From IMG/VR virus record IMGVR_UViG_3300032007_000009: a stretch of 64,000 bases of DNA; one strand, given 5' to 3'. Position 1 is the first letter of the stretch, and each line of letters begins with the position of its first letter. Made by a program: the position numbers and the translations under genes. The notes beneath the pieces were generated by a model. The model was not told the DNA's origin. It ran no database searches and was given only the letters and a program-made list of their open reading frames with translations. The stretch is from a virus. Lineage: Duplodnaviria; Caudoviricetes. Below, piece after piece: positions 638 to 25,673 of this stretch.

Positions 638-1471
638 ATGAAAAATTTAGGTGATTTAATAAAAGAATCATTTATTAATACAGATATTAATGAATATGAT
701 AATTATATAATTGAAGGATTAAATATTGATCCTAATGAAAAAATTGTATCATTAACAGATAATCATAATAAAGGATTAGATTTATCATTAATTAATAATC
801 CTGTATATAGTACATATAAAGGATATAATGTTATTTCTATTTTTAAAAGAACAAAATTATATGATATTAATGATGTTCAAAGAGATGGAAATCCATTTAT
901 TTATGCATTAAAAAATAAAAATGGATGGAAATTTAAAATAACTGATAAAGAAATACATAAATATATTAAGAGATTTTTAGAAATATGTAAAAAAATTAAA
1001 TCTTCATATGATACAATTATAATAACACCATCATCAAGTGATATTAATGAAAAATTTATGAAAGTAATATCTAATCAAGTTAATTGTAAAGATATTATTA
1101 ATGAATATTTTGTAAAATTATCTAAAGAAGAAATAATTGATGATGATTTAATTGATAAAGATCAAATTCAAAATGATTATGGAAATGATTATACTAAAGT
1201 TTTAGCAGAAATTAATAGAAGTTTTAGACGAATGAAAGGTGAATCATTTGAAGCTAAATATATTAAAAAGGAATATTTAAAATATATTAAATATATATCA
1301 ACAAATTCAAATGATAATATAAGAGATAAAATAGATAATAAGGATATTTTATTATTAGATGATACTATATCATCTGGAGAAACATTAAGTCAATGTATAG
1401 AAGGTATAATATCAAATTTTAATCCAAAATCAATTACAATTATAACATTATTATCACAGCTTAATGAATAA
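638..1471 (+). CDS. Type I phosphoribosyltransferase-fold protein with N-terminal capsid-targeting-like tag
   Basis: PRPP-binding loop ILLLDDTISSGETL; begins MKNLGDLIKE. Confidence 0.75.
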   Translation: MKNLGDLIKESFINTDINEYDNYIIEGLNIDPNEKIVSLTDNHNKGLDLSLINNPVYSTYKGYNVISIFKRTKLYDINDVQRDGNPFIYALKNKNGWKFKITDKEIHKYIKRFLEICKKIKSSYDTIIITPSSSDINEKFMKVISNQVNCKDIINEYFVKLSKEEIIDDDLIDKDQIQNDYGNDYTKVLAEINRSFRRMKGESFEAKYIKKEYLKYIKYISTNSNDNIRDKIDNKDILLLDDTISSGETLSQCIEGIISNFNPKSITIITLLSQLNE

Positions 1472-1498
1472 ACTTTATAGAAAATATATATCTAAATT

Positions 1499-2494
1499 AT
1501 GAAAACAATTAAAGAATATTTAGAAGATCAATTATATCAAGACTTATGCTATACATACACTGAAATAGATGAATCTGGTGGGTTATATGATGGTCAATTA
1601 GAATTATCTACTAAAATTACTAATGATATAGAAAATAAGTTATCAAATACACTTAAATATAAATATAATGACTTTAATATAAAAAATATATATTTTAATG
1701 AACTAGATATTAACATAACATATTTTGATGCAACAAATCATACAGTTAATGTCATATGTTTAATTGATTTTATATCAAGTGATAATAAGTGGGATGATTT
1801 TAAAAAATATAATTTTGATAAAGAAACAAATAGATTGAATAAAATTACTATTGATTTAAAATGCCCTAAACAAGTAAATATATATTATGATAATATAAGA
1901 TCTAGAATTTCGCATGAACTAAATCATGGATATGTATATTGGCAAATTATTAAAGATGATTTTTCAGAAAAAAATGTTGTTCCGGATAATTATCATAATA
2001 AATTACATGAATGGTCAAATAATATATATAATAAAATTACAAAACATATTAAAACCCCGACAAATAATGAAGCTGAACAAATTTGTTATAATTTAATTTA
2101 TACTTTAACAAGATATGAACGAAATGCATTTTTATCAGAAATAATTACATATCTATTTGATAGGAATAATGTTTTTAAAAATATAAATGATTTAAAAAGC
2201 GAATTAAATAAATCTACACAATATAAATTATATACTGATGAAGGACCAAAAATAATAGATATAATTAAAAAACATTGGTCTAAAGATAAACAGCAAATAT
2301 TAGCAAACGCATATAATAAAATATATAATACAAAATACACTTCAGGAAAAATTATAAATTTATTAGAATTTAAAATTGAAGAAACAATTAAAAAAATAAA
2401 TAAAAATATAAATACATTATCAAGAAAATATAAAAATGAAATAAATGAAACTATAAGTTATATACATTTTCCTGATGGGTTAGATTTATTTTAA
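1499..2494 (+). CDS. HExxH zincin-like protein, putative head internal protein
   Basis: ISHELNH motif plus a downstream E (YERNAF); begins MKTIKEYLE; paralogous to 27230..28225. Confidence 0.55.
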   Translation: MKTIKEYLEDQLYQDLCYTYTEIDESGGLYDGQLELSTKITNDIENKLSNTLKYKYNDFNIKNIYFNELDINITYFDATNHTVNVICLIDFISSDNKWDDFKKYNFDKETNRLNKITIDLKCPKQVNIYYDNIRSRISHELNHGYVYWQIIKDDFSEKNVVPDNYHNKLHEWSNNIYNKITKHIKTPTNNEAEQICYNLIYTLTRYERNAFLSEIITYLFDRNNVFKNINDLKSELNKSTQYKLYTDEGPKIIDIIKKHWSKDKQQILANAYNKIYNTKYTSGKIINLLEFKIEETIKKINKNINTLSRKYKNEINETISYIHFPDGLDLF

Positions 2495-2539
2495 TAAATC
2501 TTAAAAATAAATATATGTAAATCAAAAATAAAATAACTT

Positions 2540-2565
2540 AAGGAACTATTAAATTAGTTCTTTTT
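2540..2565 (+). terminator. Intrinsic terminator
   Basis: AAGGAACTA-TTAAAT-TAGTTCTTT stem followed by a T run. Confidence 0.55.
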
Positions 2566-2600
2566 GTTTTCTATATTATATTTAGAATATTTATATTTAT

Positions 2601-3983
2601 ATGGATAAAGTACAAAAGAGAACTATAACAAATTTTTTAAATACTGAATATCTTAATTATGCATTCAGTGTTTTGGAGGAACGTGCGATTCCTTCAGTTA
2701 TTGATGGATTCAAACCAGGTGCAAGAAAGATAATGCATGCAAGTTTATCAGGTACAACAAAAGACGGTAAGTTATATAAGTTGTTAGCATTATCTGGAGA
2801 TGCAATGCGTGTATCCCTCTACGCACATGGTGACATTTCTTTGAATGCGACAATTGTTAATATGTGTAAATCATTTAATGATAATCTTAATCCATTAGAA
2901 TCTGACTCACAGGTTGGTTCATTAAGAGATCCAGATTCTGCTGGTGCTCCTCGTTATCTTTATGTGAAGCATTCAAAATACATGGACTTAATCTATAAGA
3001 CTGACTATGACTTATTAGATTTTGTTTTTGAAGAAGGACAATATGTTGAACCAATGACATATCTTCCAATTATTCCAACCATATTATGTAAGAACAATAT
3101 TGGTGTTGCCGTAGGTTATTCAATGCATAATCAGGCATATGATCCTATTGATATTATTGACGCATGCAAAGAAGTTATTGAAGCACGAGCTGACAAGAAA
3201 GACAAGATTAAAACACAGATTCGTCCATATCTTAAGGGAATTAAGAAATCAAACTGGAGATATGAAGATGTAGCATGGTTTAATTATGGAGAATGGAAAT
3301 TGAACCAAGCAAAAGATTTTATGAATGTAACAGATCTTCCTGCTGATGTATCATACGAAGATTTTGAAAAACTGTTAAATAAGTTTGAGGAAGAAGACTA
3401 TATAAAAGGTTGGAAAAACAAGTCAGTGGATGGTGGAGTCAACTATGAGATAACATTCCCAAAGAAACAGTTAGCTATTGAAATGAAAAAGGATCGTTCA
3501 GGAAAACGTATAGCTAATAAGTTCAAATTGATTAAGCAACTACCTAATGATCTACTTTGGTTATTAGATGAAAACCATAAGTTGAAGTATTTCCAGAATA
3601 AGAATGAAGTAGTTGAGTATTTCGTAAATTATAGATTAGGAATCTATACAGAACGTAAGAAGAAATTAGTAAAGATTCTTGAAGAAAGAATTAAAAAGAA
3701 TGACGAATTGGTAAAGTTTATTGAATTAGTATGTAAAGGAAAACTTAAGATTCGTAATAGGGCTAAAGCAGAAATCAAGATAGATATGGATGGATATAAA
3801 CTTCCAATGGAATTGATTAGTACTCCAATGTCTAAAGTGACTATTGAAGAACGTGATGAACTATTGAAACAGAATCAGGAAATGAAAAAAGAACTTGAAT
3901 ATATCAGGAATACAACAGAAAAACAAATGTATTTGAATGATCTGAATAATCTAAGAAAAGAAATTGAAAAAGATTTTAAATAA
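2601..3983 (+). CDS. Type II DNA topoisomerase GyrA/ParC-like subunit (T4 gp52-like)
   Basis: RAIPSVIDGFKPGARK, YAHGD and the catalytic AGAPRY motif. Confidence 0.95.
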   Translation: MDKVQKRTITNFLNTEYLNYAFSVLEERAIPSVIDGFKPGARKIMHASLSGTTKDGKLYKLLALSGDAMRVSLYAHGDISLNATIVNMCKSFNDNLNPLESDSQVGSLRDPDSAGAPRYLYVKHSKYMDLIYKTDYDLLDFVFEEGQYVEPMTYLPIIPTILCKNNIGVAVGYSMHNQAYDPIDIIDACKEVIEARADKKDKIKTQIRPYLKGIKKSNWRYEDVAWFNYGEWKLNQAKDFMNVTDLPADVSYEDFEKLLNKFEEEDYIKGWKNKSVDGGVNYEITFPKKQLAIEMKKDRSGKRIANKFKLIKQLPNDLLWLLDENHKLKYFQNKNEVVEYFVNYRLGIYTERKKKLVKILEERIKKNDELVKFIELVCKGKLKIRNRAKAEIKIDMDGYKLPMELISTPMSKVTIEERDELLKQNQEMKKELEYIRNTTEKQMYLNDLNNLRKEIEKDFK

Positions 3984-4008
3984 GGAACCATATTAGGTTC
4001 CTTTTTTT
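3982..4008 (+). terminator. Intrinsic terminator
   Basis: AAGGAACC-ATATTA-GGTTCCTT plus a T tract right after the stop codon. Confidence 0.8.
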
Positions 4009-4046
4009 ATTTTTATATATATACAAATATATTATAATTATAATAG

Positions 4047-4463: not shown

Positions 4464-6140
4464 ATGGGAAAAGTTAGAATAATACCTAACATATCTTATG
4501 TTTCAGATAACTTAGGAAAATTATTAGGAATTAATGTAAATATATCATCAGGTAAAGCAATTATAATTCGTAATGCTTCATTTGCATCTAATAATTTAGG
4601 ACAAGTTGAATTTATGGGAAATGAAGTTGGTGATGAATTGAAAATTACTTCTACAGAAAATATAACAATATCATTCCCAAATAATCTTGAATATAAATAT
4701 GATGCTAATGTTTGGGATAACTGGGAAACATATATAACTAATGAAACTTTAAATATTGCTTCTGGAAAAAGCATTATATTTAGAGGCAATTTAACTCCTA
4801 ATGAAAATACAGGAATAGGAACATTTGCTATATCTGGTGATTGTAATGTATCTGGTAATCCATTATCACTTATTAATTATGGGAATATTTCTAGTTATGC
4901 ATTTAAATATTTGTTTAAAGATTGTACATATTTATTAAATACAGAAGATTTAATATTACCTAATACAACTGCTATAAGTTGTTATGAAGGTATGTTTAAG
5001 AATTGTTCTTCATTAGAAACTGCTCCTATATTACCTGCAATTACATTAACCGAAAATTGTTATAAAGAAATGTTTTATAACTGTGAATCATTAAATTATA
5101 TTGAAATAAAATCAACAACATTACTTGGTGAAAACTATTCTCTTAACTGGGTATATAATGTTGCGTCTGAAGGTGAATTCAAACAACCTACAAATATTTC
5201 TAATGCATTTAATGTAAATGCCATACCTATAGGATGGACAACTCCTATAGATTATTCTCAAATGTATTTCACAATTGAATCATTAGTAGATAATAATGAA
5301 ATTAAAATGAATAGATCAGGTTCCCCAAATAATCCAACAATAGAATATTCATTGGATAATGGAGAAACTTGGACTACTAAGAATATAACGGGATCAACTA
5401 CATTCGCAACAATTAATTCTGGAGATACTATAATATTTAAAGGAAATAATACGCAGCTTTCAATTGCATATAATAAATATAATTATTTTACTGCTACTAA
5501 AAATTTTAAAGTATATGGTAATGTAATGTCGTTATTAAATGGAGATGACTTCAAGACAAACTATGAATTCAATAGCAGTGTAACAGATCATTGTGATGGA
5601 ATATTAAGATCGGGGGCTCTTGTAGATGCAAGTAATTTAATATTACCTGCGACTACATTATATGAATCATGTTATAATGGTATGTTCAGAGATGCAGGAC
5701 ATCTTGTTTATGGGCCAAAGTTATTGCCTGCTTTAGATGTTCCTCATGATGCATATAGTTCAATGTTTGAAGGTTGTGTAAAATTAGTTGAAGGTCCTGA
5801 AATTAACGCAATAACGGCAAGTGGTGACGGAGCATTAAATAGAATGTTCTGTATGAGTAGAAGCAGTAAAGTTACTTCTGCTATGACAAAATCTCCTATA
5901 TTAAGAATAACAAATCCAAGTGAATATTCAAATGTATATCAACAATTGTTCTGTGGTAATGGAAATATAAATGAAGTAACGATACTTGCTGAGGGTACAA
6001 ATTTAAGTTTTACTAACTGGTTAAATTATCATGGGGGTAGTGGTGTAATTAAGAAGTTGTCTAAAACAACTCTTACTAATGGGATTAGTGGAGTACCTTC
6101 AGGTTGGACAACGGAAACATATGTAGAATCTAATTTATAA
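4464..6140 (+). CDS. Surface/fibre protein with BspA-like leucine-rich repeats (two modules)
   Basis: Repeated LPAxTLxxxCYxxMFxxC units; duplicated IEYSxD...IIFKGN...GNxMSL module. Confidence 0.7.
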   Translation: MGKVRIIPNISYVSDNLGKLLGINVNISSGKAIIIRNASFASNNLGQVEFMGNEVGDELKITSTENITISFPNNLEYKYDANVWDNWETYITNETLNIASGKSIIFRGNLTPNENTGIGTFAISGDCNVSGNPLSLINYGNISSYAFKYLFKDCTYLLNTEDLILPNTTAISCYEGMFKNCSSLETAPILPAITLTENCYKEMFYNCESLNYIEIKSTTLLGENYSLNWVYNVASEGEFKQPTNISNAFNVNAIPIGWTTPIDYSQMYFTIESLVDNNEIKMNRSGSPNNPTIEYSLDNGETWTTKNITGSTTFATINSGDTIIFKGNNTQLSIAYNKYNYFTATKNFKVYGNVMSLLNGDDFKTNYEFNSSVTDHCDGILRSGALVDASNLILPATTLYESCYNGMFRDAGHLVYGPKLLPALDVPHDAYSSMFEGCVKLVEGPEINAITASGDGALNRMFCMSRSSKVTSAMTKSPILRITNPSEYSNVYQQLFCGNGNINEVTILAEGTNLSFTNWLNYHGGSGVIKKLSKTTLTNGISGVPSGWTTETYVESNL

Positions 6141-6167: not shown

Positions 6168-8471
6168 ATGAAAACTATACAATTACAAAAAGATAGCATT
6201 AAAGCTAGTCCATTAACATCAATAGAATCAATATATAATATATATCCTTTATTAAGATCATCTGAGCCAGTTGGCCCATGGATATATAATTTGAATGAAA
6301 TAGAATTACCATATTCATGTAATGGATTAGATGGACATTGGGGTAGTATGAGAGGAGCCAATACTTGGACTTTCAATTCTACATTTACAATACATAAAAT
6401 TCAACCAACATATTTATGGTTTACTTATGCTACGATTTATTCTACATTATACATTAATGAAGTTTTAGTAGGCACTCATACTGGAGGTTATAATGCATTC
6501 TTTTTTGATATAACAGATTATATTACAAAAGGAACAAATACAATAAAAATAATATTAAATAATCAAAGAAATAGTTCAACATATCTTCCTAAAGAAGGTG
6601 ATTTTAATTTTAATGCAACACTTGGTGAAGTAAGATTATTGACTAGTCCAGTTTTACCTGATAAAAAATATGGATATGATGGTTTTCATATTACTTCAAC
6701 AGTTACATCATCAGTAGCAACAATAACAATTGAAACATCAGTTCCTAATTATGCAGATATTATATGTCATATTAAAGATGGAGAATATAACTTTACAGCA
6801 AGAAAATTTGGAAAGGGTGTTATAACATTTGAAACAACTATTGATAATCCACATCTTTGGAATGGTAAATTAGATCCTCATCTTTATGATGTAACTCTTG
6901 AAATATATTATAATGGAGAATTATATCATAAATTAAATAGAGGATATGGATTTAGATATTATGAATATGTAATTAATGATACTGAAAAGGTTGGTACTGT
7001 TTCTGAACCATATACAGGTTTTTTATTGAATGGACAAAAATATTTACTTAGAGGTGTAAATACTCATCATGATTTAGTAGGAAAGGCTAATGCATTGGAA
7101 CCTTTAGATGTTGATAATGATTTTGATATTATAAGAGAACTTGGTTGTAATTTCTTACGTCTTGCACACTATCCACACCCTAAACAAGTATATGATTATT
7201 GTGATAAATTAGGAATCATTGTTCAAACTGAAATTCCTTGGGTTAATACTGCAGAATCTACTTTAACAGATAATCAAAAAACAAGTGCACATGAACAAGT
7301 ATATGATATGGTTATGGAACATTATAATCATCCATCTATTATATTTTGGGGTTTATGTAATGAGGTAACAACAGGTTCTGCAGCAAATACAAAAGTGTTC
7401 ATGGAAGAACTTAGAACATATATAAGAACATTAGATACATCAAGATTGGTTGGTGGTGTTATGAGTGCATCAGGTTCTGCACCATCGTATTGGGGAACAC
7501 CTAATTTAGATTGGTTTGGCTGCAACATATATGTTGGTTGGTATAGTGATCAAACATCAAATAATCCAACATCACAACTTAATAATAGAAAGACAAATTT
7601 CATAACAAACAATAATAAGCCATTTGCATATTCTGAATATGGATGTGGAGGTAATATGATATGTCATTCTAATGATCCAAGTTCAACAACAACAAGAGGT
7701 AATAATCCAAGACATGATATAGAATATCAAATGTGGTTACATGAAGGTCACATTGCAGCAATTAAAAATTTCCCAGAATTAATATTTAGTTCAATGTGGA
7801 TGTTATTTGATATAGCAGTATATAATAGACAAGAAGGATACAAAGTATGTTTAGATGGAAGTGATATTGTTGTTGATGATGATAGATTTAAGTATCTTAA
7901 TGATAAAGGATTAGTTGAAAGAGATCATAAGACAAAGAAAGATACATTCTATTTATATAAAGCATGGTGGAGTGATGAAAAGTTTGTACATATTTGTCAA
8001 AAGAATTATGTAAAGAATGTAGATAGAGTTATAAAATGTTATTCTAATGATGGTGATACATTCAAGCTTTATGTTAAGGGAATTAATGATGAATCTGAAC
8101 AACTTATTGAAACAGTAACAGCAACAAATAATATTGTATTATTTACTGCAAGAACATTTACTGAAGGTGATATTATTAGAGTTGAGGGAGAAACAACAAG
8201 TGATTCATATACATTTACTACAAAATTCTTACATATTTGTCAACATGAAGTAATAGCAAACACATCTGGTGATAACAAAACAATAAAATGTTATTCTAAT
8301 GATGGCGATACATTTAAACTTTATGTTAATGATGTTGAGATTGAAACTGTAACATCTACAGATAATGTAGCAACATTTACCCAAAGAAAGTTTTATGGAA
8401 ATGATATTGTAAGAGTTGAAGGTGCAACATTAACAGATACATTTAAATTTATTTATCCTAAAAGATATTAA
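6168..8471 (+). CDS. Glycoside hydrolase family 2 (beta-galactosidase/glucuronidase-like)
   Basis: LNGQKYLLRGVNTH, RLAHYPH, HYNHPSIIFWGLCNE (acid/base) and SEYG (nucleophile); duplicated C-terminal beta domain. Confidence 0.9.
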   Translation: MKTIQLQKDSIKASPLTSIESIYNIYPLLRSSEPVGPWIYNLNEIELPYSCNGLDGHWGSMRGANTWTFNSTFTIHKIQPTYLWFTYATIYSTLYINEVLVGTHTGGYNAFFFDITDYITKGTNTIKIILNNQRNSSTYLPKEGDFNFNATLGEVRLLTSPVLPDKKYGYDGFHITSTVTSSVATITIETSVPNYADIICHIKDGEYNFTARKFGKGVITFETTIDNPHLWNGKLDPHLYDVTLEIYYNGELYHKLNRGYGFRYYEYVINDTEKVGTVSEPYTGFLLNGQKYLLRGVNTHHDLVGKANALEPLDVDNDFDIIRELGCNFLRLAHYPHPKQVYDYCDKLGIIVQTEIPWVNTAESTLTDNQKTSAHEQVYDMVMEHYNHPSIIFWGLCNEVTTGSAANTKVFMEELRTYIRTLDTSRLVGGVMSASGSAPSYWGTPNLDWFGCNIYVGWYSDQTSNNPTSQLNNRKTNFITNNNKPFAYSEYGCGGNMICHSNDPSSTTTRGNNPRHDIEYQMWLHEGHIAAIKNFPELIFSSMWMLFDIAVYNRQEGYKVCLDGSDIVVDDDRFKYLNDKGLVERDHKTKKDTFYLYKAWWSDEKFVHICQKNYVKNVDRVIKCYSNDGDTFKLYVKGINDESEQLIETVTATNNIVLFTARTFTEGDIIRVEGETTSDSYTFTTKFLHICQHEVIANTSGDNKTIKCYSNDGDTFKLYVNDVEIETVTSTDNVATFTQRKFYGNDIVRVEGATLTDTFKFIYPKRY

Positions 8472-8977: not shown

Positions 8978-9445
8978 TTATTCACTAAATTCAACTACTT
9001 TTGATCCACCATAAGGTCCATACATCCCTAATAGTTTTTCTGAAGCACTTGCATCAAAACGTAAACTATCTTTTTTGAATAATATTTCTTTATCTTCTGC
9101 ATCACTAATAAAACTGTTTCTATTCATAACAGACATATTATTTTTTTTAAAGTCTTTAGCTATTTTATTATCTTTAAATTTATAACCTGCAAGAATAAAA
9201 TATTTAAATTTAGTAGCATCCCATTTATTCTTTGATAAGAAATCTTCAATTTTTTTTATCATTTCCTTTCCTTCTTCTTCAGTTAAAAATGGTTCTTTTT
9301 CAAGTCTCCCACTATCAGGTTCATATAACTTATCAATTTCAAAATGATCCCAGATACTTTGCATTTCTGGTGACATTGAATTATTAACTTTAGTATCCTT
9401 ATTAATTACTAATTTTTCATTTATAATGTCTTTAAGGTTTTTCAT
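8978..9445 (-). CDS. Tagged putative head internal protein
   Basis: N-terminus MKNLKDIINE-KLVINKDTK. Confidence 0.6.
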   Translation of the reverse strand: MKNLKDIINEKLVINKDTKVNNSMSPEMQSIWDHFEIDKLYEPDSGRLEKEPFLTEEEGKEMIKKIEDFLSKNKWDATKFKYFILAGYKFKDNKIAKDFKKNNMSVMNRNSFISDAEDKEILFKKDSLRFDASASEKLLGMYGPYGGSKVVEFSE

Positions 9446-9771
9446 AATATAAAATCTTTTATTTCTTTATATAATTTATCATTATATGCTTCTATATAAT
9501 CAACAAGTTCTTGATACTTTATTCCTACTTCATTATATAACTTTGGATAATCACCTAACCTATCTAATACATCACATATTTTATTATTAAATTTTTGTTC
9601 CAATAAATCTAAACCTGGTTTGTATTTTACATTTTTATATTCAAGTGTTCCTTGAAAATATCTGCATAATACTTCAGAAATTTTATCCTGTTCCTTTTGT
9701 GATAAGTAATCAAACTTAGTATTTTTATTGATAATTAGTTTTTCTGTTATAAAATTAGTTATTTGTTTCAT
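9442..9771 (-). CDS. Tagged putative head internal protein
   Basis: N-terminus MKQITNFITE-KLIINKNTK. Confidence 0.6.
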   Translation of the reverse strand: MKQITNFITEKLIINKNTKFDYLSQKEQDKISEVLCRYFQGTLEYKNVKYKPGLDLLEQKFNNKICDVLDRLGDYPKLYNEVGIKYQELVDYIEAYNDKLYKEIKDFIL

Positions 9772-12776: not shown

Positions 12777-13316
12777 ATGGAAGAAAATATTTTATTAGGT
12801 AAAATAGAAAATGATAATAAAACTTGTTCATGGCCAACACCTGAACGTGAAGCTAAGACAATAGAAATTATCAATAACATGCAGCAACAAATACCGCAAG
12901 AATTATTAGATAATATAAAAAATTCTGATTTAATGAAAATAAAATCTAAATCTTTATATCAATGGGGTTTAGAAACTGCATTAACATTAGAAAATATTGA
13001 TAAAGAAATTAATTTATTTATGATTGCTCAAGATCCAAAAACAGGAGAGATCACTCATATATGTCATTCTTGCGATACTGATGATCTTGAGAAAAGAATA
13101 GATAAATTAGTAAGAATGATTAATAATGCATGTTATGGGGTAAGAGAACATAATAATGAACCAGTTGCAAATGAAATATTTACTATTATAGCTAATGTTT
13201 GTGCTGCATATTGTGCTCAGTCTGAAGATACATTCAAAAGTTTTATGCATGTAGTTAAATATTTTATAGATATTAATAAAGAAGCAGAAGAAAAAACTAA
13301 AGAATCTCAAACATAA
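12777..13316 (+). CDS. Hypothetical protein
   Basis: 179-aa ORF in operon context. Confidence 0.6.
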   Translation: MEENILLGKIENDNKTCSWPTPEREAKTIEIINNMQQQIPQELLDNIKNSDLMKIKSKSLYQWGLETALTLENIDKEINLFMIAQDPKTGEITHICHSCDTDDLEKRIDKLVRMINNACYGVREHNNEPVANEIFTIIANVCAAYCAQSEDTFKSFMHVVKYFIDINKEAEEKTKESQT

Positions 13317-18386: not shown

Positions 18387-18999
18387 ACAATTCATATATA
18401 CAGAAAAGGACGCTGAAAAAATGTTCTTTACGTCTGATACACATTTCTGTCATGAAAATATTATTAAATATTGTAAGCGACCATTTAAGACTGTAGAAGA
18501 GAATGATGAAGAATTAATCCGTCGTTGGAATGAAAAAGTTCCTAAGGATGGTATTGTTTTCCATCTTGGTGATGTGGCATTTGGAGATCCTGACCGTGTT
18601 GATAATATTCTTGAACGTCTTAATGGTACAATTTATTTAATTATTGGTAATCATGACTGGAGAAGAATCGTATCTCAACATGCATGGAGATTTGAAAAGA
18701 TGACTCAGCAAATTAATATGAAAATCGGTAAGCGTCATATTATTTTGAATCATTATCCAATGCTTGCGTTTTCAGGAGCATGGCGTGGCGAAGATGCAAC
18801 ATATCAATTATTTGGACATGTTCATACATCTCCATATACTGATGAAGGTCTTGACCAAGCTCGTATGAAAATGTTGTTTACTTCTCAATATGATGTAGGT
18901 GTCGATAACAATGATTTTACTCCAGTATCATGGAAAGAGGTCGATAAAATTATTAATAATCAAATGATGAGTTTAGGAATGTGTCGTAATACTATTTAA
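18376..18999 (+). CDS. Calcineurin-like metallophosphoesterase
   Basis: SDTH, HLGD, GNHD, HYP and GHVH motifs. Confidence 0.92.
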   Translation: MKNKQFIYTEKDAEKMFFTSDTHFCHENIIKYCKRPFKTVEENDEELIRRWNEKVPKDGIVFHLGDVAFGDPDRVDNILERLNGTIYLIIGNHDWRRIVSQHAWRFEKMTQQINMKIGKRHIILNHYPMLAFSGAWRGEDATYQLFGHVHTSPYTDEGLDQARMKMLFTSQYDVGVDNNDFTPVSWKEVDKIINNQMMSLGMCRNTI

Positions 19000-19103
19000 T
19001 ATGAATAAGAAAATTGAAAATTTTAAAGAATGGTTATATTTGAAATATAATGCATCAAAAGAATATGGTAATGTTGAAGAGTGGAATATTTGGGAAATTG
19101 TAA

Positions 19104-19739
19104 TTGATAAATTTAATGAAGTATTTGATGAAAGCTGAAGATTATAAAATAATTAATAATGGACTATGGATTTCTGAGAAGGAATTAAATAGATTATTGA
19201 AAGAAAATATTAAGCTTAGAGATGAATCACCTGATTGGCAAATTAAAAAGAATTGGATGCATCAAGGTGCGGAATATATTTGGTTTAATCCGTGGAATAG
19301 ACATTTAAATGGTCGTATAGGAATATTACAAGAACTAAAAAAGAAATATGACGATAATAAAGTAAGATAAAATTTTTAAAGATAAACAATATATACTTTA
19401 AATAATTAAATATTTATTAAAATAAGTATTATGAAAAAAATAATTATAATTTTACTTTTTATATTAGTTACACTTACTTCGTGTTATAAAATTAATTATC
19501 AGACTCGTATTGTATATGATGTATGTTACCCTGATACAACAATTCGTTATGATACAATAGTAAATTGTATATATGTTGGAGATGTTATTTCAGATAATCT
19601 TTTAAACATAGATACTACATCTGCGGTAAAACTTTATTCATATAAAGGTAGTAATAGTATTAGTATTAGACCAGGTAATAACTATATAATGGAGACAACT
19701 GCACCAATTAGATTATATTATTATAAAAGAATTAAATAA
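19104..19739 (+). CDS. Hypothetical genes (about 19104-19370; 19431-19739 putative lipoprotein)
   Basis: 19431 has a hydrophobic signal ending LTSC. Confidence 0.5.
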
Positions 19740-19974: not shown

Positions 19975-20370
19975 TTAAATATCTTTATAAAATTGAATCC
20001 AATTTTCTGGTTCATCTTCAACTTCTTGTAAAAACTCTTCAACTTTATCTAATGTTAATACAATAGCTTTAGCAAAATTATCTGTTTTTAAATCACAATA
20101 AGGGTCATCATCATAATTTATTGCACCAATTTTACCTATCCAAAGTTTCCATGTTTTTTCTTTATCAACATAACCTAACAAGAAATGAATAAATATATTC
20201 TTTTCTTTATCTTCATGTTTATATTCTATTTTCTGATATTGTTCACCATTATTAAGCCATGTTACTTTTTTATCTGGAGATTTCCAAATAGTAAATTTTA
20301 TATTGCCACGACGTGTGGTTTTCTTTTCATCTTCATCAGATTCTCTAATGTATTGTATGATTGATTTCAT
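19975..20370 (-). CDS. Tagged putative head internal protein
   Basis: N-terminus MKSIIQYIRE. Confidence 0.6.
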   Translation of the reverse strand: MKSIIQYIRESDEDEKKTTRRGNIKFTIWKSPDKKVTWLNNGEQYQKIEYKHEDKEKNIFIHFLLGYVDKEKTWKLWIGKIGAINYDDDPYCDLKTDNFAKAIVLTLDKVEEFLQEVEDEPENWIQFYKDI

Positions 20371-20375
20371 AAAAA

Positions 20376-20648
20376 TTATCTATCACCTTCTTTTTCATCT
20401 GGAGCTAAACGAACTTTAAATTCAATACTATCGCCAACTCTTGTTAAATCTTCTAAACTACGTAATGCTGATGTGATAATATGAAAACGATTTTCATCAG
20501 CTTCTAAATCAAATTTAATTGCTTTAGCACCTTCACGAATACAATTACAAAATTCATCTAATTCATCAACATTACAAAGTATTGTTCCATTAGATTTATA
20601 TCTTTTTGCTTCTCTACGTTCAGATATTAATTCTTTAATATTTTTCAT
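20376..20648 (-). CDS. Tagged putative head internal protein
   Basis: N-terminus MKNIKELISE. Confidence 0.6.
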   Translation of the reverse strand: MKNIKELISERREAKRYKSNGTILCNVDELDEFCNCIREGAKAIKFDLEADENRFHIITSALRSLEDLTRVGDSIEFKVRLAPDEKEGDR

Positions 20649-20776
20649 ATTTTACTAAATTGTATTAAGTAACATGCAGAGTTATCTTCTCTTACGGTAC
20701 CAATAATATTTTTTTTACAGTTATTAAATTTTTTTTCTTTTATATAGTATTTGCAATTAATGCATTTATCTTCCAT
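20645..20776 (-). CDS. Small Cys-rich protein (43 aa, not in the ORF track)
   Basis: MEDKCINCKYY...NCKKN...SACYL; its TGA overlaps the next ATG. Confidence 0.5.
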   Translation of the reverse strand: MEDKCINCKYYIKEKKFNNCKKNIIGTVREDNSACYLIQFSKI

Positions 20777-20854
20777 TTTATTTATCTAATCATTATATTT
20801 GATTATATATTAAAAAATAAACATTTTAATATTTTTTTATAATGATTTATAATA

Positions 20855-22516
20855 TTAAATTGTAAAATTTGAATCTGCTAATATATAATTTAATTTAGTT
20901 TCATATTTTTTACTAAGTTTTTTCATTGTAGCATTATCATTATTTGTAATGAATTCAATCATCCCATCAATATTTTTTATAAATTTATCGATTTCTTTTT
21001 CATTAATATCAAATTCAGCATCAGTTATAATAACATTTATAAGATATTCTTTTGTATGATCTTTCATATATTCTAATAATTGATGGAAAGGCATTGTTCC
21101 ACCTCCAACATTAGTTTTCTTACCAAATTGAATTTCTATCATACTAGTATCAAATGCATATATCTTAAATGTTACATCATCAACAATAGTTTCTTTAGAA
21201 TATTGTTTCTTTAATGATTCAGCTATTGTATATAATGCTTTAAATACATTATTTATTGAACTACCCATTGAACCAGATCTATCAATATAAAATGCAACAT
21301 TAATTGTAAATTTTTCTTCTTTAATTTTTCGTCCAGGTTGAATAGGTTGTCCATATTTTATAAATCCTGAACCACGTTTAACTCTTGAATATGTTGATTG
21401 ATATTCACGTTTCTTTTGAAATACTTTCTTTTTAACAAATGTATTAATAGATGAATTCATTTGTTTATTCCAACCACCTATTCCATTATTTGTATTTGTA
21501 GCTAATCCAGATTCTTTAAGTTCTACAGATTTTTTACACTTAGATATAAATGTTCCTAAATCACCACTTAATTTATTTTTATATTTTTCAATTATTTTAT
21601 CAGCCTTTTCTTTAATCTTTTTTAAATCAGCATCAGATAATTTAGCTTCTTTATGACCTTTACCTGCTTTATGTCCTTGAGCTTCTTTATTACCTTTTTG
21701 ATCGTTTCCTTGACTTTCCTTACCTTGACCTTCTTTACCTTGACCTTCTTTACCTTGACCTTCTTTACCTTGACCTTCTTTACCTTGACCTTCTTTACCT
21801 TGACCTTCTTTACCTTGACCTTCTTTACCTTGACCTTCTTTACCTTGACCTTCTTTACCTTGGCCTTCCTTACCTTGACCTTCCTTACCTTGACCATTTT
21901 GATTATTTCCTTGTTCGTCGTTTTCTTGTTCTTTATATTTAGGATCCTTTTTTATATCATCTATTTTATTTAGAAGTTTCATATATAATGTGTATTGAGT
22001 ATCGACTTTACGATCATATTTAATACCAAATTGTTCATATATATATTCTGGTGTAATTAAATTATCTGGCATATCTTTTTTACGATAATATGAAAGATAA
22101 TCATTAATTATACAATCAGATGCATAGTTTAATAATTTATGATCATATTTATCTTCACCATGTTTTTCTTTTATTTTATCACCAACTGCAAATGTATCCC
22201 AAAGCTGATGTAAACATTCATGATCATATATAAAATCCCATTGACGAATTTTTTCTCCAATACGTCCAGGACAATTTAGATATATTAAATGATCTGGTGT
22301 AGTATATGCAATACTATTATCATCAGGATGTAAAAATCTTACAAATTCAAGCATATCATAGAAGAATATATCATTATCATTATCTGCACTATCATTGATA
22401 TATTCTAATGTTTTAACTCTGAAATTTTCTTTATGATCTATTTCTGAAATTTCAATAAGACTTTCTTTTACATATTTAAAATCTTCATCATTTAAAAGTG
22501 AACTCTTTATTTCCAT
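20855..22516 (-). CDS. HExxH metallopeptidase-like + low-complexity linker + VWA domain protein (DUF2201-like MoxR partner)
   Basis: IAYTT...HECLH...NYASDCIIND; MIDAS YIDRSGSM, GGGT, IITD. Confidence 0.85.
   Translation of the reverse strand: MEIKSSLLNDEDFKYVKESLIEISEIDHKENFRVKTLEYINDSADNDNDIFFYDMLEFVRFLHPDDNSIAYTTPDHLIYLNCPGRIGEKIRQWDFIYDHECLHQLWDTFAVGDKIKEKHGEDKYDHKLLNYASDCIINDYLSYYRKKDMPDNLITPEYIYEQFGIKYDRKVDTQYTLYMKLLNKIDDIKKDPKYKEQENDEQGNNQNGQGKEGQGKEGQGKEGQGKEGQGKEGQGKEGQGKEGQGKEGQGKEGQGKEGQGKEGQGKESQGNDQKGNKEAQGHKAGKGHKEAKLSDADLKKIKEKADKIIEKYKNKLSGDLGTFISKCKKSVELKESGLATNTNNGIGGWNKQMNSSINTFVKKKVFQKKREYQSTYSRVKRGSGFIKYGQPIQPGRKIKEEKFTINVAFYIDRSGSMGSSINNVFKALYTIAESLKKQYSKETIVDDVTFKIYAFDTSMIEIQFGKKTNVGGGTMPFHQLLEYMKDHTKEYLINVIITDAEFDINEKEIDKFIKNIDGMIEFITNNDNATMKKLSKKYETKLNYILADSNFTI
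21716..21895 (-). repeat. 12 x 15-bp tandem repeat encoding (GQGKE)12
   Basis: Near-perfect GGTCAAGGTAAAGAA units. Confidence 0.97.
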
Positions 22517-22520
22517 TATA

Positions 22521-22982
22521 TTATTTACCTAAATATTTCTTTAAATTATCACGTATTCTTAATGTATATTTATCAGCTATAGAATGACGATAAGGATGAA
22601 TTTTTTTACATTTTTGTTCATAATATTGTAAAACATATTGTAAAAATTCCTTTGGTTCTTGGTCTAAATACGTTTTTAATTTTTCGTATCTACCCCATGG
22701 CATATCAAATCTACAAAAATCCCTAATATCTTTCTCATCAAATTCTTTTTTATTTTGACGGTTTTTACGTAATTTATCTAATATAACTAATTGAATATCA
22801 CGAATTTTATTAATTGTAGTATCGTATTTTACCATGTAAGGTTCTTTTTCTGATTTAGAAAATGCCATATTAACACATTCATAATCATGACGAAGTTCTT
22901 CATCAGTAAATTCCTTTTTACGAACTGTCGTATTTTTATTAATACGAAGGCCTTCTTGTATATAGTTAGTTATTTGTTTCAT
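22521..22982 (-). CDS. Tagged putative head internal protein
   Basis: MKQITNYIQE-GLRINKNT. Confidence 0.65.
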   Translation of the reverse strand: MKQITNYIQEGLRINKNTTVRKKEFTDEELRHDYECVNMAFSKSEKEPYMVKYDTTINKIRDIQLVILDKLRKNRQNKKEFDEKDIRDFCRFDMPWGRYEKLKTYLDQEPKEFLQYVLQYYEQKCKKIHPYRHSIADKYTLRIRDNLKKYLGK

Positions 22983-22983
22983 T

Positions 22984-23382
22984 TTATCCTTTTACCTTTG
23001 CTAATATTAAACCTTGTTTATTATACATTGATTTTATATAATTTTCAGTTGCTTTACTATTATCCTGATGATTAATTAAAAGAAATTCGCCTTTTATAAA
23101 TTTTTCCCAATAATAACCTGGTGAAGCTTGATAATTTCCATTGTCTAATTTTTTTAACCAATAAAATTTATCGTCATCATCTGAATCTCGTTTAATCATA
23201 ACTATTGCTTCTTCTGGAGATTCAGCATAATCATCAATAGGTTGATCTTTACCTATTGAATGATAATATTGTTCATCAGTATTTTTTATTTGAATATTTA
23301 AACCACCTTCAATATGTTTTTTTATTTTAGTATTTTTATTAATACGAAGGCCTTCTTGTATATATGATGTTATTTGTTTCAT
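22984..23382 (-). CDS. Tagged putative head internal protein
   Basis: MKQITSYIQE-GLRINKNTK. Confidence 0.65.
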   Translation of the reverse strand: MKQITSYIQEGLRINKNTKIKKHIEGGLNIQIKNTDEQYYHSIGKDQPIDDYAESPEEAIVMIKRDSDDDDKFYWLKKLDNGNYQASPGYYWEKFIKGEFLLINHQDNSKATENYIKSMYNKQGLILAKVKG

Positions 23383-23388
23383 ACAAAT

Positions 23389-23730
23389 TTATTGATATAA
23401 TTCTTTATAATAAGGTTTTAAATTAGATATTGGTTTTGATATTGTTCTATAAGATACACATCCATGTTTATAAATTTGTGAATTTTCATCCTTAATTACA
23501 AAATGTATACCATCATTAATAGCTTTATTATATTCATGAGAAAGATCAAAATCAATATAGTATGATTTTTCTCCAGAAGGATTAATATATTCTATTGTAT
23601 TTAATTGAGGTACAACACAAAACTGATAAAAATCATCATCAGTATTAAAATACATTGTATTTGATTTAATTTTCTTAAACATAAATTTATAGTTATTTCC
23701 AATTTTTAGGATGTTCAGTTTCCCATACAC
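23389..23730 (-). CDS. Hypothetical protein (true start probably downstream, at MFKKIK)
   Basis: ORF in operon context; untagged. Confidence 0.55.
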   Translation of the reverse strand: MYGKLNILKIGNNYKFMFKKIKSNTMYFNTDDDFYQFCVVPQLNTIEYINPSGEKSYYIDFDLSHEYNKAINDGIHFVIKDENSQIYKHGCVSYRTISKPISNLKPYYKELYQ

Positions 23731-24106
23731 CCCTACTTGGATTTGATAATATATTTCTTATTTTTAAATCTGTAAAAAGTTCATGATAATGTGAAGGCGT
23801 ATTTCCTTTTACTCCTTTAACAACATCTTCCTTTTTAGAAGGTCCATTATAATATAAATAACAATAGAATGAATACCAATTAACATTATTACCATATTTA
23901 GTTTTACGTTTACTATATGGATAATTTGAATTTCTATTGTTAAGTTCTTTTAATTTATCATCAATTAATTCATCTAATTCAGGAATATCACAAGTTGTAT
24001 ATAATTTAGAATCTTTTAATTCTTCATCACTATAAACATGTTTATCAAATTTAAGATTTTTATTAATTTTTAACCCTTCTTTTAAATATGTATTAATGTT
24101 TTTCAT
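23693..24106 (-). CDS. Tagged protein with probable winged-helix domain
   Basis: MKNINTYLKE-GLKINK; YLYYNGPSKKEDVV...FTDLKIRNIL...RGVWE. Confidence 0.55.
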   Translation of the reverse strand: MKNINTYLKEGLKINKNLKFDKHVYSDEELKDSKLYTTCDIPELDELIDDKLKELNNRNSNYPYSKRKTKYGNNVNWYSFYCYLYYNGPSKKEDVVKGVKGNTPSHYHELFTDLKIRNILSNPSRGVWETEHPKNWK

Positions 24107-24114
24107 AATTTAAA

Positions 24115-24429
24115 TTATACCCATTCTTCAATAGGTTTTGCTTCTAATTTTCTAGTTTTCTTATTAGGAACTATAATATTACGTTTAGATAATTTAGCAA
24201 ATTCAGTTGAATAACTAGTTACTTGTAATCCAAAATGAGATAATAAATCAACTTTAGACATAGGACCTTCATTTAATAAGTATTCCCACCATTGAGCCCA
24301 AAGATATTTTTCTCCATTCTTTTTGGTCATTTTATATTTTGCATTAGTATCGTCTACACTCATTTTTTTAAATTTTGTATCTTTACTAATGCTAAGACCT
24401 TCATCTATAAATTCAATAATGTTTCTCAT
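24115..24429 (-). CDS. Tagged protein with probable winged-helix domain
   Basis: MRNIIEFIDE-GLSISKDTK; YLLNEGPMSKVDLL...FAKLSKRNII. Confidence 0.55.
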   Translation of the reverse strand: MRNIIEFIDEGLSISKDTKFKKMSVDDTNAKYKMTKKNGEKYLWAQWWEYLLNEGPMSKVDLLSHFGLQVTSYSTEFAKLSKRNIIVPNKKTRKLEAKPIEEWV

Positions 24430-24437
24430 AATTGTTA

Positions 24438-25673
24438 TTAATCTTCTTCAGGATCTGAATATCCTTTCTTTTTCCATTCTTCATTTTTCTTAAATTTAAA
24501 TGTTATACCGTCAGCTTCAAATTTATTGATTATTCTTTCTAACATTTCAGCATTACAATCATCAGAATCTACAATTGCTCTAATATTTTCTTCAGATATT
24601 CCATATTTAACGCCGTCTTGTTCGATATATCCAAATTTCATACCTTGCTTTATGGCAGTTTTAATATTTTCATCTACCATGTTTATATCTTTTGATTTAC
24701 GACCACTTCTTCCTGATGATTCTTCTTTTTTATCATCATTTTTTGAATTCATAAAACTATATATATCGTCTGCTAATTTTTTAACATTATTTTCTTGTGT
24801 TCTAGTTAAATCTTCTTTAATTAATCCTTCAAGACGATCTAAATAATCTTCTGCATCAAAATAGTCAGTGTCACCATCTTCTTTCATTTTATAAATGAAT
24901 TTAAATATTTTTTGCTCAACTTCACGAGGATTTTCAAATACTTCTGCATTATCTTCAAATTTATCAATTAATTCTTTAGATAATTTTTCATCCCAATTTT
25001 TATGTAAATATTTAAAAGCATCTTTCCAAGAATCCCCACCAGTTTCCCAAACAATAAGTGGTTTGAAACGTGAACGTAATGGACCAGATAATTCATTAAC
25101 TGCACCATTTTCTGATTCAAAGTTACCGGCAGCGCCAACAAAGAAATTATCGAACTTACGACCACAAATTTCATGTTCTAAAACAATAGGCATAAGAGCA
25201 TTCATTACATCAGGAGCTGCCTGATTCATTTCATCAAAGAATAATAAGAATTTTTTATTAGGGTTATCTTCCATTATTTTAGCCCATGCAGGCATTGCCA
25301 TTTCTTGTACAGCACCCTTTTTACCTTGAACAGGAATAGGAATACCACCAAGGTCAGATGCAACAGCTTTATCAAGATAAACAGTAACTACATCTCTTTT
25401 AAATTTACTAGCTAAATTTTTAATAATTGATGTTTTACCCCAACCTGCTTCTCCAATAATAAAGAAATCTTCTTCAGTTTTAAACTTCATAAGAAGTCTT
25501 TTCATATTCTTACTAAGATTCTTTTTGTCTATTTCTTCGGCAGCATCATCATCTTTAGGTTCATTTACACCCCATTTTCCACCTTTTAATCCATTTTTTT
25601 CAGCTTCTTCACCCTGAACTTGTTTTAAATTAGGTTCTTTACTTTCAATAAAAAAAGAATATAAATTTTTCAT
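24438..25673 (-). CDS. MoxR-type AAA+ ATPase with N-terminal tag
   Basis: GEAGWGKT, SDLGGIP, LLFFDEMNQA, AAGN, LSGPLRSRF, NPR; begins MKNLYSFFIE. Confidence 0.88.
   Translation of the reverse strand: MKNLYSFFIESKEPNLKQVQGEEAEKNGLKGGKWGVNEPKDDDAAEEIDKKNLSKNMKRLLMKFKTEEDFFIIGEAGWGKTSIIKNLASKFKRDVVTVYLDKAVASDLGGIPIPVQGKKGAVQEMAMPAWAKIMEDNPNKKFLLFFDEMNQAAPDVMNALMPIVLEHEICGRKFDNFFVGAAGNFESENGAVNELSGPLRSRFKPLIVWETGGDSWKDAFKYLHKNWDEKLSKELIDKFEDNAEVFENPREVEQKIFKFIYKMKEDGDTDYFDAEDYLDRLEGLIKEDLTRTQENNVKKLADDIYSFMNSKNDDKKEESSGRSGRKSKDINMVDENIKTAIKQGMKFGYIEQDGVKYGISEENIRAIVDSDDCNAEMLERIINKFEADGITFKFKKNEEWKKKGYSDPEED

Follow-up and report, generated by a model that had tools for sequence, protein, structure and literature searches.

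We analysed a 64,000-nucleotide stretch of the genome of an uncultured giant phage of the cattle gut (Caudoviricetes; IMG/VR record IMGVR_UViG_3300032007_000009), hereafter the window, in which 11 of the 103 open reading frames begin with the motif M-[KR]-x-[LI]-x-x-[FYLI]-[ILF]-x-[ED]. The tagged starts lie at 638 and 1499 on the plus strand and at 9445, 9771, 20370, 20648, 22982, 23382, 24106, 24429 and 25673 on the minus strand, and in all 11 cases the longest ORF opens at this ATG. The tagged genes, an untagged neighbour and a promoter-like motif are as follows.

638..1471, plus strand: tagged, leader MKNLGDLIKE; C-terminal phosphoribosyltransferase domain in the body (Pfam PF00156)
1499..2494, plus strand: tagged, leader MKTIKEYLED, the sole Asp10; HELNH at residues 139-143 (zincin-like, by motif)
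8978..9445, minus strand: tagged, extended leader MKNLKDIINEKLVINKDTKV; body of no identified family
9442..9771, minus strand: tagged, extended leader MKQITNFITEKLIINKNTKF; body of no identified family
19975..20370, minus strand: tagged, leader MKSIIQYIRE; body of no identified family; last gene of a class-B operon
20376..20648, minus strand: tagged, leader MKNIKELISE; body of no identified family
20855..22516, minus strand: untagged VWA / DUF2201-type HExxH protein
22521..22982, minus strand: tagged, extended leader MKQITNYIQEGLRINKNTTV; body of no identified family
22984..23382, minus strand: tagged, extended leader MKQITSYIQEGLRINKNTKI
23693..24106, minus strand: tagged, extended leader; winged-helix body, related to the winged helix of 24115-24429
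24115..24429, minus strand: tagged, extended leader, disordered linker and winged-helix body (AF2 model, Foldseek)
24438..25673, minus strand: tagged MoxR-type AAA+ ATPase (AAA_5, Pfam), leader MKNLYSFFIE; first gene of its operon
25700..25720, minus strand: promoter-like motif of class B, TTATTTTTAATATA, lying 43 nt ahead of the tagged AAA+ gene

The 11 shared N-termini reported in the initial annotation were all found, and its residue counts were borne out. Residue 10 is Glu in ten leaders and Asp in the gene at 1499; positions 4, 7 and 8 are hydrophobic in all 11, position 4 being Leu or Ile and position 7 Phe, Tyr, Leu or Ile. Residues 8-10 read [IL]-x-E in nine leaders, F-I-E in one and L-E-D in one. 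Enrichment over shuffled N-termini was also evident: 2000 shuffles of the N-terminal columns gave a mean of 1.0 and a maximum of 5 motifs per 103 ORFs, against the 11 observed. None of the 346 internal Met residues in the window ORFs opens the motif, and the pattern without its Met occurs internally at 6e-4 per position. A six-frame scan of every ATG-started ORF of at least 25 residues in the window returned the strict motif at these 11 gene starts and at no other ATG. Among 151 proteins from three genomes that start MKx-phi-xx-phi-phi (phi, hydrophobic), the first Glu falls at position 10 in 121.

Where leaders lack an extension, conservation reaches no further than position 11, which holds Ser in 35% and Ala in 14%. 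Six of the 11 tagged proteins have in common a longer, 20-residue leader whose conservation continues some 10 residues beyond Glu10, so a simple cleaved 10-residue tag is an insufficient account. A Sec or lipoprotein signal peptide was rejected, since the leaders contain no hydrophobic core of at least 10 residues and are amphipathic, with polar residues at 3, 5, 6 and 9 and Glu at 10. True lipoprotein-like starts do occur in the window (e.g. at 17605 and 19431), and these differ from the tagged leaders.

The bodies behind the leader are mostly unrelated, as first described: the phosphoribosyltransferase, the AAA_5 ATPase, the HExxH protein and the winged-helix protein differ, and no alignment between tagged proteins reaches past the leader. 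The PF00156 match of 638..1471 lies just above threshold (28.8 bits; cut-off, 26.3), and its ortholog in the related genome G003 is 76% identical and retains the tag. For 1499..2494 the earlier zincin assignment stands as far as the HExxH motif goes, but no family match to the body was obtained in Pfam or PHROGs; the remaining tagged bodies likewise gave no match in either collection. The AAA+ ATPase has 812 homologs, and most of the 120 listed start MK(K/N)Lxx[FY]V. In the AF2 model of 24115..24429, residues 4-11 form a low-confidence helix, residues 11-28 are disordered and residues 33-104 exceed a pLDDT of 90; all best Foldseek matches are winged-helix domains (best E-value 0.013). The predicted structure thus shows a modular leader, a detached helix joined by a linker to a confident body, and homologs of this protein likewise comprise leader, variable-length linker and conserved body. 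Modularity is also evident from 22521..22982, because the homologous body in the relative G001 carries a different, 9-residue leader, MKVFSSINE.

Tagged genes are insertions in otherwise conserved gene orders, and homologous bodies can bear different leaders. The gene 8978..9445 is inserted between RecA and DUF4494 genes that adjoin in G001. A conserved trio, made up of 20855-22516, 23389-23682 and the AAA+ gene, is split in this phage by four tagged cassettes. The neighbours 22521..22982 and 22984..23382 are nearly identical over their first ~45 nt and unrelated beyond. The G001 ortholog of 19975..20370 is 61% identical, and its Glu has moved to position 11.

Two promoter-like motifs, A and B, lie about 42 nt ahead of start codons. 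Motif A is found before genes for polymerase and topoisomerase; in G001, motif B precedes the portal, protease-scaffold, capsid, sheath and tube genes. In the window, motif-B-headed units hold seven of the 11 tagged genes, and the copy at 25700..25720 heads a nine-gene operon running from 25673 down to 19975; the genes at 638, 1499, 9445 and 9771 follow topoisomerase or RecA genes and have no class assignment. Counted as transcription units (B:A), tagged against untagged gave 7:0 against 9:61 in the window (Fisher p = 5e-6), 49:4 against 140:179 in G001 (p = 4e-12) and 24:2 against 36:76 in G003 (p = 1e-8). Almost all tagged genes with a class assignment therefore appear to share the promoter class of structural genes, the presumed timing of which is read from the genes that the motif precedes. 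RNA-library contigs cover the tagged genes, which is coverage alone and not a transcription measurement.

The window itself is devoid of protease, scaffold and capsid genes, so we infer the prohead protease of this phage from its relatives. In related phages of 223-413 kb and in Sphingomonas phage PAU, a gp23-type capsid gene adjoins the gene for a prohead protease of the T4 gp21 family (S77), and PF03420 scores above cut-off in all three near-complete relatives (G001, G002 and G004), in PAU and in phage PTm1. PTm1 has the protease without the tags, and the protease alone is thus no predictor of the tag. Each relative has a tag version of its own, present on 7-15% of the proteins, and the leader is retained between genomes even where protein identity is only 40-60%. 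In G001, 78 proteins are tagged, about 45 of which are DUF285 repeat proteins, and an array of tagged genes extends up to the protease gene. There the protease and a scaffold-like region form a single fusion protein, and the gp23-family capsid gene comes next; the fusion has more than 2200 homologs. The G001 scaffold contains eight repeats of QNW[IV]xEEFAPEV. G001 contains 59 copies of the hexapeptide [FYW][IV]xE[EK]F, of which 46 are in leaders, seven in the scaffold and six in extra leader copies; the rest of its 124,753 residues has none. G002 and G004 combine leaders of their own with similar scaffold repeats. Across the relatives, the aromatic-aliphatic-x-Glu core of the leader is repeated in the scaffold, the capsid propeptide and the ends of the protease.

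PAU (JQ362498) is a cultured relative by its capsid protein (32% identity). About 19-23 of its 290 proteins start MK[TS][LI]xxL[YF]E[AS], and the tagged genes surround those for the portal, protease, scaffold and capsid, the scaffold itself being tagged. Two are annotated 'internal capsid protein', an annotation for which the record states no basis. KLNE[SA] occurs in PAU leaders and the capsid protein only; LYE[SA] is also found at the N- and C-terminal ends of the protease and at the portal C-terminus. N-terminal sequencing showed the PAU capsid protein to be trimmed from 585 to 520 residues (PMC5646251), and the processing point falls within one residue of LME64. PAU resembles the present phage in having a shared short leader on many proteins, but differs in placing Glu at position 9, in often having a second KLNE site and in having fewer tagged proteins. 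Our literature search found no published description of the PAU tags.

The T4 prohead protease gp21 cuts away the capsid-targeting sequences (CTS) of the internal proteins IPII and IPIII as well as the related propeptides found on IPI, Alt, gp24 and gp22 (Mullaney and Black 1996; PMC9026906, PMC3012670). The T4 record gives the leaders MKTYQEFIAE followed by A for IPIII, MAKINELLRE followed by S for gp24 and MLKEQLIAE followed by A for gp22. Mutagenesis of IPIII assigned targeting to residues 4 and 7 and processing to residues 8 and 10 (PMC9026906, section 2.6), and Asp10 in IPIII kept targeting but blocked processing (PMC9026906). The likeness to the T4 sequence noted at the outset withstood closer comparison: the conserved positions 4, 7, 8 and 10 are the IPIII determinants, the relatives have the S77 protease with a gp23-type capsid, most tagged genes appear to share the structural promoter class, and the core recurs at the head-protein sites described above. 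Both systems place a 10-residue leader directly after Met, in which positions 4 and 7 are hydrophobic, position 8 is aliphatic and Glu10 precedes a small residue, on unrelated bodies and in lineages with that protease and capsid pair. The scale differs: T4 tags about 6 of its 255 ORFs, whereas the figure is 11 of 103 in the window and reaches 15% of the proteome in relatives. So does the cargo, which comprises enzymes, an AAA+ ATPase and winged-helix proteins here and DUF285 repeat arrays in relatives. Many leaders here further have the conserved extension past Glu10, and the leader resembles a tandem repeat of the relatives' protease-scaffold fusion. The T4 leaders were defined by experiment, those of this lineage by sequence.

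The internal-protein loci of T-even phages are polymorphic, encoding diverse basic proteins with only a CTS-like leader in common (PMC9026906 section 3.1, PMC3012670). They share with the window a variable cargo behind a common leader and a cassette-like pattern, seen here as insertions between conserved neighbours and as leader DNA common to adjacent unrelated genes. T-even cassettes are confined to one or two loci, whereas those here are dispersed, including in replication-gene operons; and the T-even host is an enterobacterium, whereas the host here is probably a rumen member of the Bacteroidota. Head and ejection proteins of phiKZ, 201phi2-1 and SPN3US have propeptides that a gp21-like protease cleaves at S/A-x-E sites (PMC5694885, PMC7411985). 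These are also giant phages with many internal head proteins and a protease of the same family cutting after Glu, but their propeptides are mostly 80-130 residues long with no shared short tag, and P3 of the cleavage motif is small, in contrast to the aliphatic P3 preceded by an aromatic residue here.

The explanation we favour, and consider fairly likely, is that the leader is a T4-type prohead-targeting sequence, removed by the protease, that has been greatly expanded and is carried on swappable cassettes in conserved operons. A short amphipathic helix, through Leu/Ile at residue 4 and Phe/Tyr at residue 7, would dock the protein into the prohead scaffolding core, where the leader would resemble one unit of the scaffold's own repeat. 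Residues 8-10 ([IL]-x-Glu) would form the cleavage site for the phage's gp21-family (S77) protease, which would clip off the leader during head maturation, and the mature protein would remain beside the DNA inside the head and probably enter the host together with it. We infer docking, cleavage after Glu10, head retention and ejection by this route, and the sequences suggest that the protein payload packaged and injected by this phage is probably unusually large. An anti-defence or host-takeover role for the cargo, as the initial annotation envisaged, is unsupported. Against a targeting leader stands the scale of tagging, 10-15% of the proteome including the approximately 45 DUF285 proteins of G001, which is far beyond any documented head payload. 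The four tagged genes without a class assignment, the leaders conserved past Glu10 and the protease-bearing but untagged PTm1 also weigh against it.

An unlikely alternative is that the leader anchors proteins, especially adhesin-like DUF285 proteins, to the capsid exterior or another virion part instead of loading cargo for injection into the head. The DUF285 family is typical of bacterial surface proteins, and the many tagged members in G001 would fit such a function, as would the lectin-like and BspA-type LRR genes also driven by class-B promoters in the window; these window genes are themselves untagged, however. PTm1 bears head fibres according to the review literature (PMC7824862), yet it lacks the tags. 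The same leader also sits on a cytoplasmic-type phosphoribosyltransferase, an AAA+ ATPase and a winged-helix protein, and the elements it resembles, scaffold repeats and propeptide sites, are transient parts of the head interior.

We regard as very improbable a degradation or regulatory tag, such as an N-terminal ClpXP degron limiting the lifetime of late proteins. Flynn and colleagues reportedly described N-terminal ClpX recognition motifs in 2003, and the window encodes both ClpX (13569-14753) and ClpP (29120-29722; PF00574, 98 bits). But G001, with its 78 tagged proteins, has neither, PAU is tagged with no ClpX homolog by BLAST, and T4, likewise tagged, is not known to encode ClpX. The ClpX N-motif is Met-basic-phi-phi-phi, and the leader lacks three consecutive hydrophobic residues after Met-basic; a degron would also leave the scaffold-repeat likeness and the clustering by head genes unexplained. 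Least probable of all is a leader-coding segment of little protein function that serves as a recombination anchor for cassette swaps: the shared 5' ends of 22521-22982 and 22984-23382, the insertions in conserved gene orders and the different leaders on homologous bodies would suit it, but codons vary synonymously and Leu/Ile or Phe/Tyr are exchanged among the 11 leaders while the residue classes at 4, 7, 8 and 10 persist, which argues for selection on the peptide, the leader is kept across the divergent relatives, and cassette swapping is compatible with a targeting role and no replacement for it.

The prohead-targeting reading can be taken further, tentatively. The leader may be a single copy of the scaffold repeat, so that its carriers co-polymerise with the prohead core and are freed when the protease takes the scaffold apart, through the same cuts. 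At least a tenth of the proteome might then be loaded as an injected arsenal, with cargo gained through leader-bearing cassettes in late operons. If this is true, the arsenal of these rumen and gut giant phages would consist of enzymes, DNA-binding proteins and an AAA+ chaperone and, in the relatives, of dozens of diversified repeat-protein binders.

All 11 N-termini that the initial annotation had described as sharing a 10-residue tag were confirmed at their positions (starts at 638 and 1499 on the plus strand; 9445, 9771, 20370, 20648, 22982, 23382, 24106, 24429 and 25673 on the minus strand). Residue 10 is Glu in ten of them and Asp in one, and positions 4, 7 and 8 are hydrophobic in all 11, both as it had claimed. 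The strict pattern M-[KR]-x-[LI]-x-x-[FYLI]-[ILF]-x-[ED] starts 11 of 103 ORFs, and the expected enrichment over shuffled N-termini was found (mean 1.0, maximum 5, in 2000 trials with N-terminal columns shuffled among proteins). Among all ATG-started ORFs of at least 25 residues in six frames, the pattern occurs only at these 11 gene starts; none of 346 internal methionines carries it. Column shuffling and six-frame scanning exclude chance or composition as the source of the tag, and this N-terminal feature of 11 genes is real and strongly non-random. Leader codons vary between the genes while residue classes are constant, and thus selection acts on the leader peptide.

The window has a G+C content of 25% and a high coding density. 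Its genes include those for the two parts of a type II topoisomerase (3-635 and 2601-3983), RecA, ClpX, MnmA, a ThyX-like protein, an NAD-dependent ligase, a T4-type baseplate protein and an SbcCD-like pair; no head genes lie within it. The stretch is present in bovine and goat gut metagenomes (sequencing runs), and contigs from two RNA libraries span its tagged and untagged genes alike, and so are no sign of transcription or its timing. Matching by exact DNA pattern against the viral and metagenome contig collections did not turn up the contig of this phage. Homologs of its proteins sit on contigs of uncultured viruses, 190-440 kb long, and four related genomes were retrieved in full: G001 (410 kb), G002 (413 kb), G003 (193 kb, incomplete) and G004 (223 kb). 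By capsid protein, the lineage falls with Sphingomonas phage PAU, the Prevotella Lak megaphages, Tenacibaculum phages pT24 and PTm1, and Chryseobacterium phages.

In G001, 78 of 511 ORFs start with the strict motif, where shuffling gives 6.4 on average; G003 has 37 of 264, against a shuffled average of 2.7. DUF285 repeat proteins account for about 45 of the tagged proteins of G001. The G004 leader is MSLSxFITERLKITS with Glu at position 9, and that of G002, found on 37 proteins, is MEILKSEQYInEKLNIqPVsKDRL with Glu at position 12. About 20 of the 290 PAU ORFs start with a pattern of their own, MK[TS][LI]xxL[YF]E[AS]. The leader and its sharp register are thus specific to each genome. T4 carries tags on about 6 of its 255 ORFs; PTm1 lacks them. 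Tagged genes in PAU flank those for portal, protease, scaffold and capsid; a tag is also present on the scaffold itself (gp152) and on gp142 and gp154, the last two annotated 'internal capsid protein' on a basis unstated in the record. Literature searches on PAU, Lak and further giant phages of Bacteroidota returned no account of tags of this kind.

Among 151 proteins of the window, G001 and G003 that start with MKx-phi-xx-phi-phi (phi, hydrophobic), the first Glu is at position 10 in 121. In unextended leaders of the same three genomes, position 11 is Ser in 35% and Ala in 14%, and conservation ends there. An extended version, E-[GK]-L-x-I-[NS]-K-[ND]-T-K, is present on six window proteins with unrelated bodies. 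An AlphaFold model of the protein at 24115-24429, built from 18 homologs, has three parts: a short low-confidence helix (residues 4-11), a disordered segment (residues 11-28) and a confident three-helix and hairpin body (residues 33-104), for which the top structural matches are all winged-helix domains, with weak E-values (best 0.013). The leader-to-body linker varies from 0 to about 50 residues among its homologs, and the G001 homolog of the 22521-22982 body has a different, 9-residue leader. The detached helix, the variable linker and the differing leader on a homologous body therefore define the leader as a separable module. Family matches, leader alignments and the structure model bear out the proposal that the bodies are unrelated, which excludes whole-protein paralogy. 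Ten tagged proteins had no match in PHROGs, two tagged proteins or leaders had none by tblastn against the phage collection, and the HExxH protein met only unnamed viral clusters in the ESM Atlas.

The likeness to T4 capsid targeting put forward in the initial annotation holds at the level of individual positions. Encapsidation of the T4 internal protein IPIII needs its first 10 residues only; residues 4 and 7 mainly govern targeting and residues 8 and 10 processing, and Asp-10 blocks processing and keeps targeting (PMC9026906, a review of Black's work). The window leaders conserve exactly these four determinant positions. By analogy with IPIII, the Asp-10 protein at 1499 would be loaded without clipping. 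The N-termini in the T4 record are MKTYQEFIAE/A for IPIII, MAKINELLRE/S for gp24, MLKEQLIAE/A for gp22 and MNEPQLLIE/T for the prohead protease gp21. The same record (L072) also contains a 54-residue ORF at 18966-19130 (minus strand) with a start like the capsid-targeting sequence, MKTFKEFIKED.

PF03420 (Peptidase_S77, the gp21 family) scores above the cut-off in G001, G002, G004, PAU and PTm1; 14 control bacteria gave no such match. In both G001 and PTm1, a 565-residue protein has the protease as its N-terminal third and a scaffold-like remainder, and its gene is directly followed by a gp23-family capsid gene. The protease-scaffold fusion has more than 2200 metagenome homologs, and of the best 120 none was traceable to the contig of the window. 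In the relatives it lies as follows.

L029:2910-4607, protease-scaffold fusion of G001
290916-292859, protease-scaffold fusion of G002
214501-216414, protease-scaffold fusion of G004

The scaffold-like region consists of tandem repeats of 12-14 residues in G001 and G002 and longer ones in G004. Repeat sequence is genome-specific in the three, and every repeat holds aromatic-aliphatic-x-Glu. G001 has eight tandem 12-residue repeats, QNW[IV]xEEFAPEV; when one repeat unit, V-Q-N-W-I-T-E-E-F, is aligned with the commonest G001 leader, L-N-Q-F-I-T-E-K-F, all hydrophobic positions and the Glu coincide. The G001 proteome contains 59 copies of the hexapeptide core [FYW][IV]xE[EK]F (46 in leaders, 7 in the scaffold and 6 in second leader copies), and its 124,753 residues hold no others. 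The G002 scaffold has twelve HNDYLAE[KQ]L repeats and a leader core QYInEKL; that of G004 has WVTEEY and YLKEQF and a leader core FITERL. This co-variation of leader and scaffold repeat across the three genomes compared is suggestive only.

Of the eight KLNE[SA] sequences in PAU, six belong to leaders and two to the capsid protein; one of the capsid copies falls in the N-terminal propeptide region. The capsid protein of PAU is processed from 585 to 520 residues, as shown by N-terminal sequencing (PMC5646251); the processing point lies at most one residue from the site L-M-E64. L[YF]E[SA] is also found at the N- and C-terminal ends of the PAU protease and at the portal C-terminus. The C-terminal tails of the portal (108296) and protease (111408) both read ...K[SK]LYESIK[AS]K (records L057 and L061-L071). 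The LYE/S in these tails, which the N-terminal tags also have, suggests C-terminal processing or targeting sites. The simplest reading of the sequences is that aromatic/aliphatic-aliphatic-x-Glu would be the protease site of this lineage, similar in role to the (L/I)-x-E of T4, and that the leader would imitate the scaffold unit. Complex prediction for the G001 protease-scaffold protein and a cognate tagged 115-residue protein gave a score of zero, which speaks neither for nor against binding.

Two promoter-like intergenic motifs with fixed spacing precede start codons by a median of 42 nt.

Motif A, ACTATATTA: window positions include 2571, 13532, 36533, 40265 and 59832, before replication and nucleotide genes
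Motif B, TTATTTTTAAnTATA: window positions include 4007, 13563, 15818, 25716, 31084 and 45573, before structural, fibre-like and tagged genes

Motif B often directly follows a terminator hairpin in the window. In G001, 65 of its 74 occurrences are intergenic, and it lies ahead of the genes for portal, protease-scaffold, capsid, sheath and tube; motif A in G001 lies ahead of those for DNA polymerase and topoisomerase. From the genes that it precedes, we infer that class B is 'late'. Each gene was assigned to the nearest upstream motif within its co-oriented gene run.

Class B to class A genes (B:A) among tagged and untagged genes, with Fisher p
Window: tagged 7:0 (the seven genes of one operon, 25673 down to 19975, leaving out four tagged genes behind the topoisomerase large subunit or RecA); untagged 9:61; p 5e-6
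G001: tagged 49:4; untagged 140:179; p 4e-12
G003: tagged 24:2; untagged 36:76; p 1e-8

In G001 the RecA operon belongs to class B. A glycosidase gene of the window and its upstream neighbour look like virion fibre or adhesin parts, since both lie behind a class-B motif; they are homologous (54% and 34%, respectively) to parts of one giant G001 protein. These and two genes with leader-like starts are listed here.

6168-8471, plus strand, GH2-family glycosidase
4464-6140, plus strand, gene upstream of the glycosidase
G001 127580-133231, giant protein homologous to this pair
13297-13524, minus strand, small class-B gene kept in G001 and G003, with the start MKFIKDLSLE, a near-variant of the leader (Glu-10 present, Ser at position 8)
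27230-28225, minus strand, untagged protein paralogous to the HExxH protein of 1499-2494, with HELIH at 149-153 and the start MIELNNYIKN, leader-like without Glu-10

Tagged genes sit inside otherwise conserved gene arrangements. Those at 638 and 1499 sit between the two topoisomerase parts, and two others lie between RecA and a DUF4494 gene that adjoin each other in G001. A trio encoding a MoxR-type AAA+ protein, a 97-residue protein and a VWA protein carrying a DUF2201-type HExxH domain is contiguous in G001 and G003, and has four tagged genes inserted among its members in the window.

Window 19975-25673, MoxR/VWA trio with insertions
G001 63965-67899, MoxR/VWA trio
G003 146243-149819, MoxR/VWA trio
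Window 21708-21895, 15-nt unit repeated 12.5 times with 97% matches, encoding the central KEGQG run of the VWA/HExxH protein (20855-22516)

In G001, the conserved trio opens an array of tagged genes, near-unbroken from 63.5 to 82 kb, that extends to the protease gene. The AAA+ protein bears the leader in most of the 120 homologs listed and may be a head-assembly or cargo-loading chaperone. Two adjacent tagged genes have nearly identical leader DNA and nothing else in common. Descriptions of the variable loci for internal proteins in T-even phages (PMC9026906, PMC3012670) agree with this cassette behaviour. DNA-level recombination is compatible with a peptide function of the leader but is no substitute for it.

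An external virion anchor is a possible role of the leader for the adhesin-like cargo of relatives, but it fits neither the tagged enzymes nor the resemblance of the leader to sequences of scaffold and propeptide, both internal and transient. A ClpXP degron would suit the window, which encodes both ClpX and ClpP, but G001 carries 78 tags and neither protein.

13569-14753, plus strand, ClpX with its zinc finger; present in G003, absent from G001
29120-29722, minus strand, ClpP family (PF00574, 98 bits), inside a nucleotide-metabolism operon; absent from G001 and G003

The MoxR/VWA-HExxH operon as tag-processing machinery was rejected as a general explanation because PAU is tagged without a homolog of the operon, and no radical-SAM enzyme that might use the leader as a recognition site was seen among the window proteins scanned.

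We consider it fairly probable that the leader is a greatly expanded, cassette-borne version of the capsid-targeting, protease-clipped leader of T4. Tagging of at least a tenth of a proteome is unprecedented, and the true cargo may be only some of the tagged proteins. If the leader acts like that of T4, giant phages of ruminant and gut Bacteroidota would deliver dozens of pre-made proteins alongside their DNA, a payload far beyond that of any characterised phage, and the tag would be a simple sequence key to candidate injected proteins of uncultured phages. Injected proteins are natural anti-defence candidates because they act before phage gene expression; such a role for this cargo is speculation. 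A concrete rule for cargo recruitment is suggested by the likeness of the leader to the scaffold repeat, and phages of this group might be engineered with the short leader as a packaging handle, in the way that T4 is with its capsid-targeting sequence.
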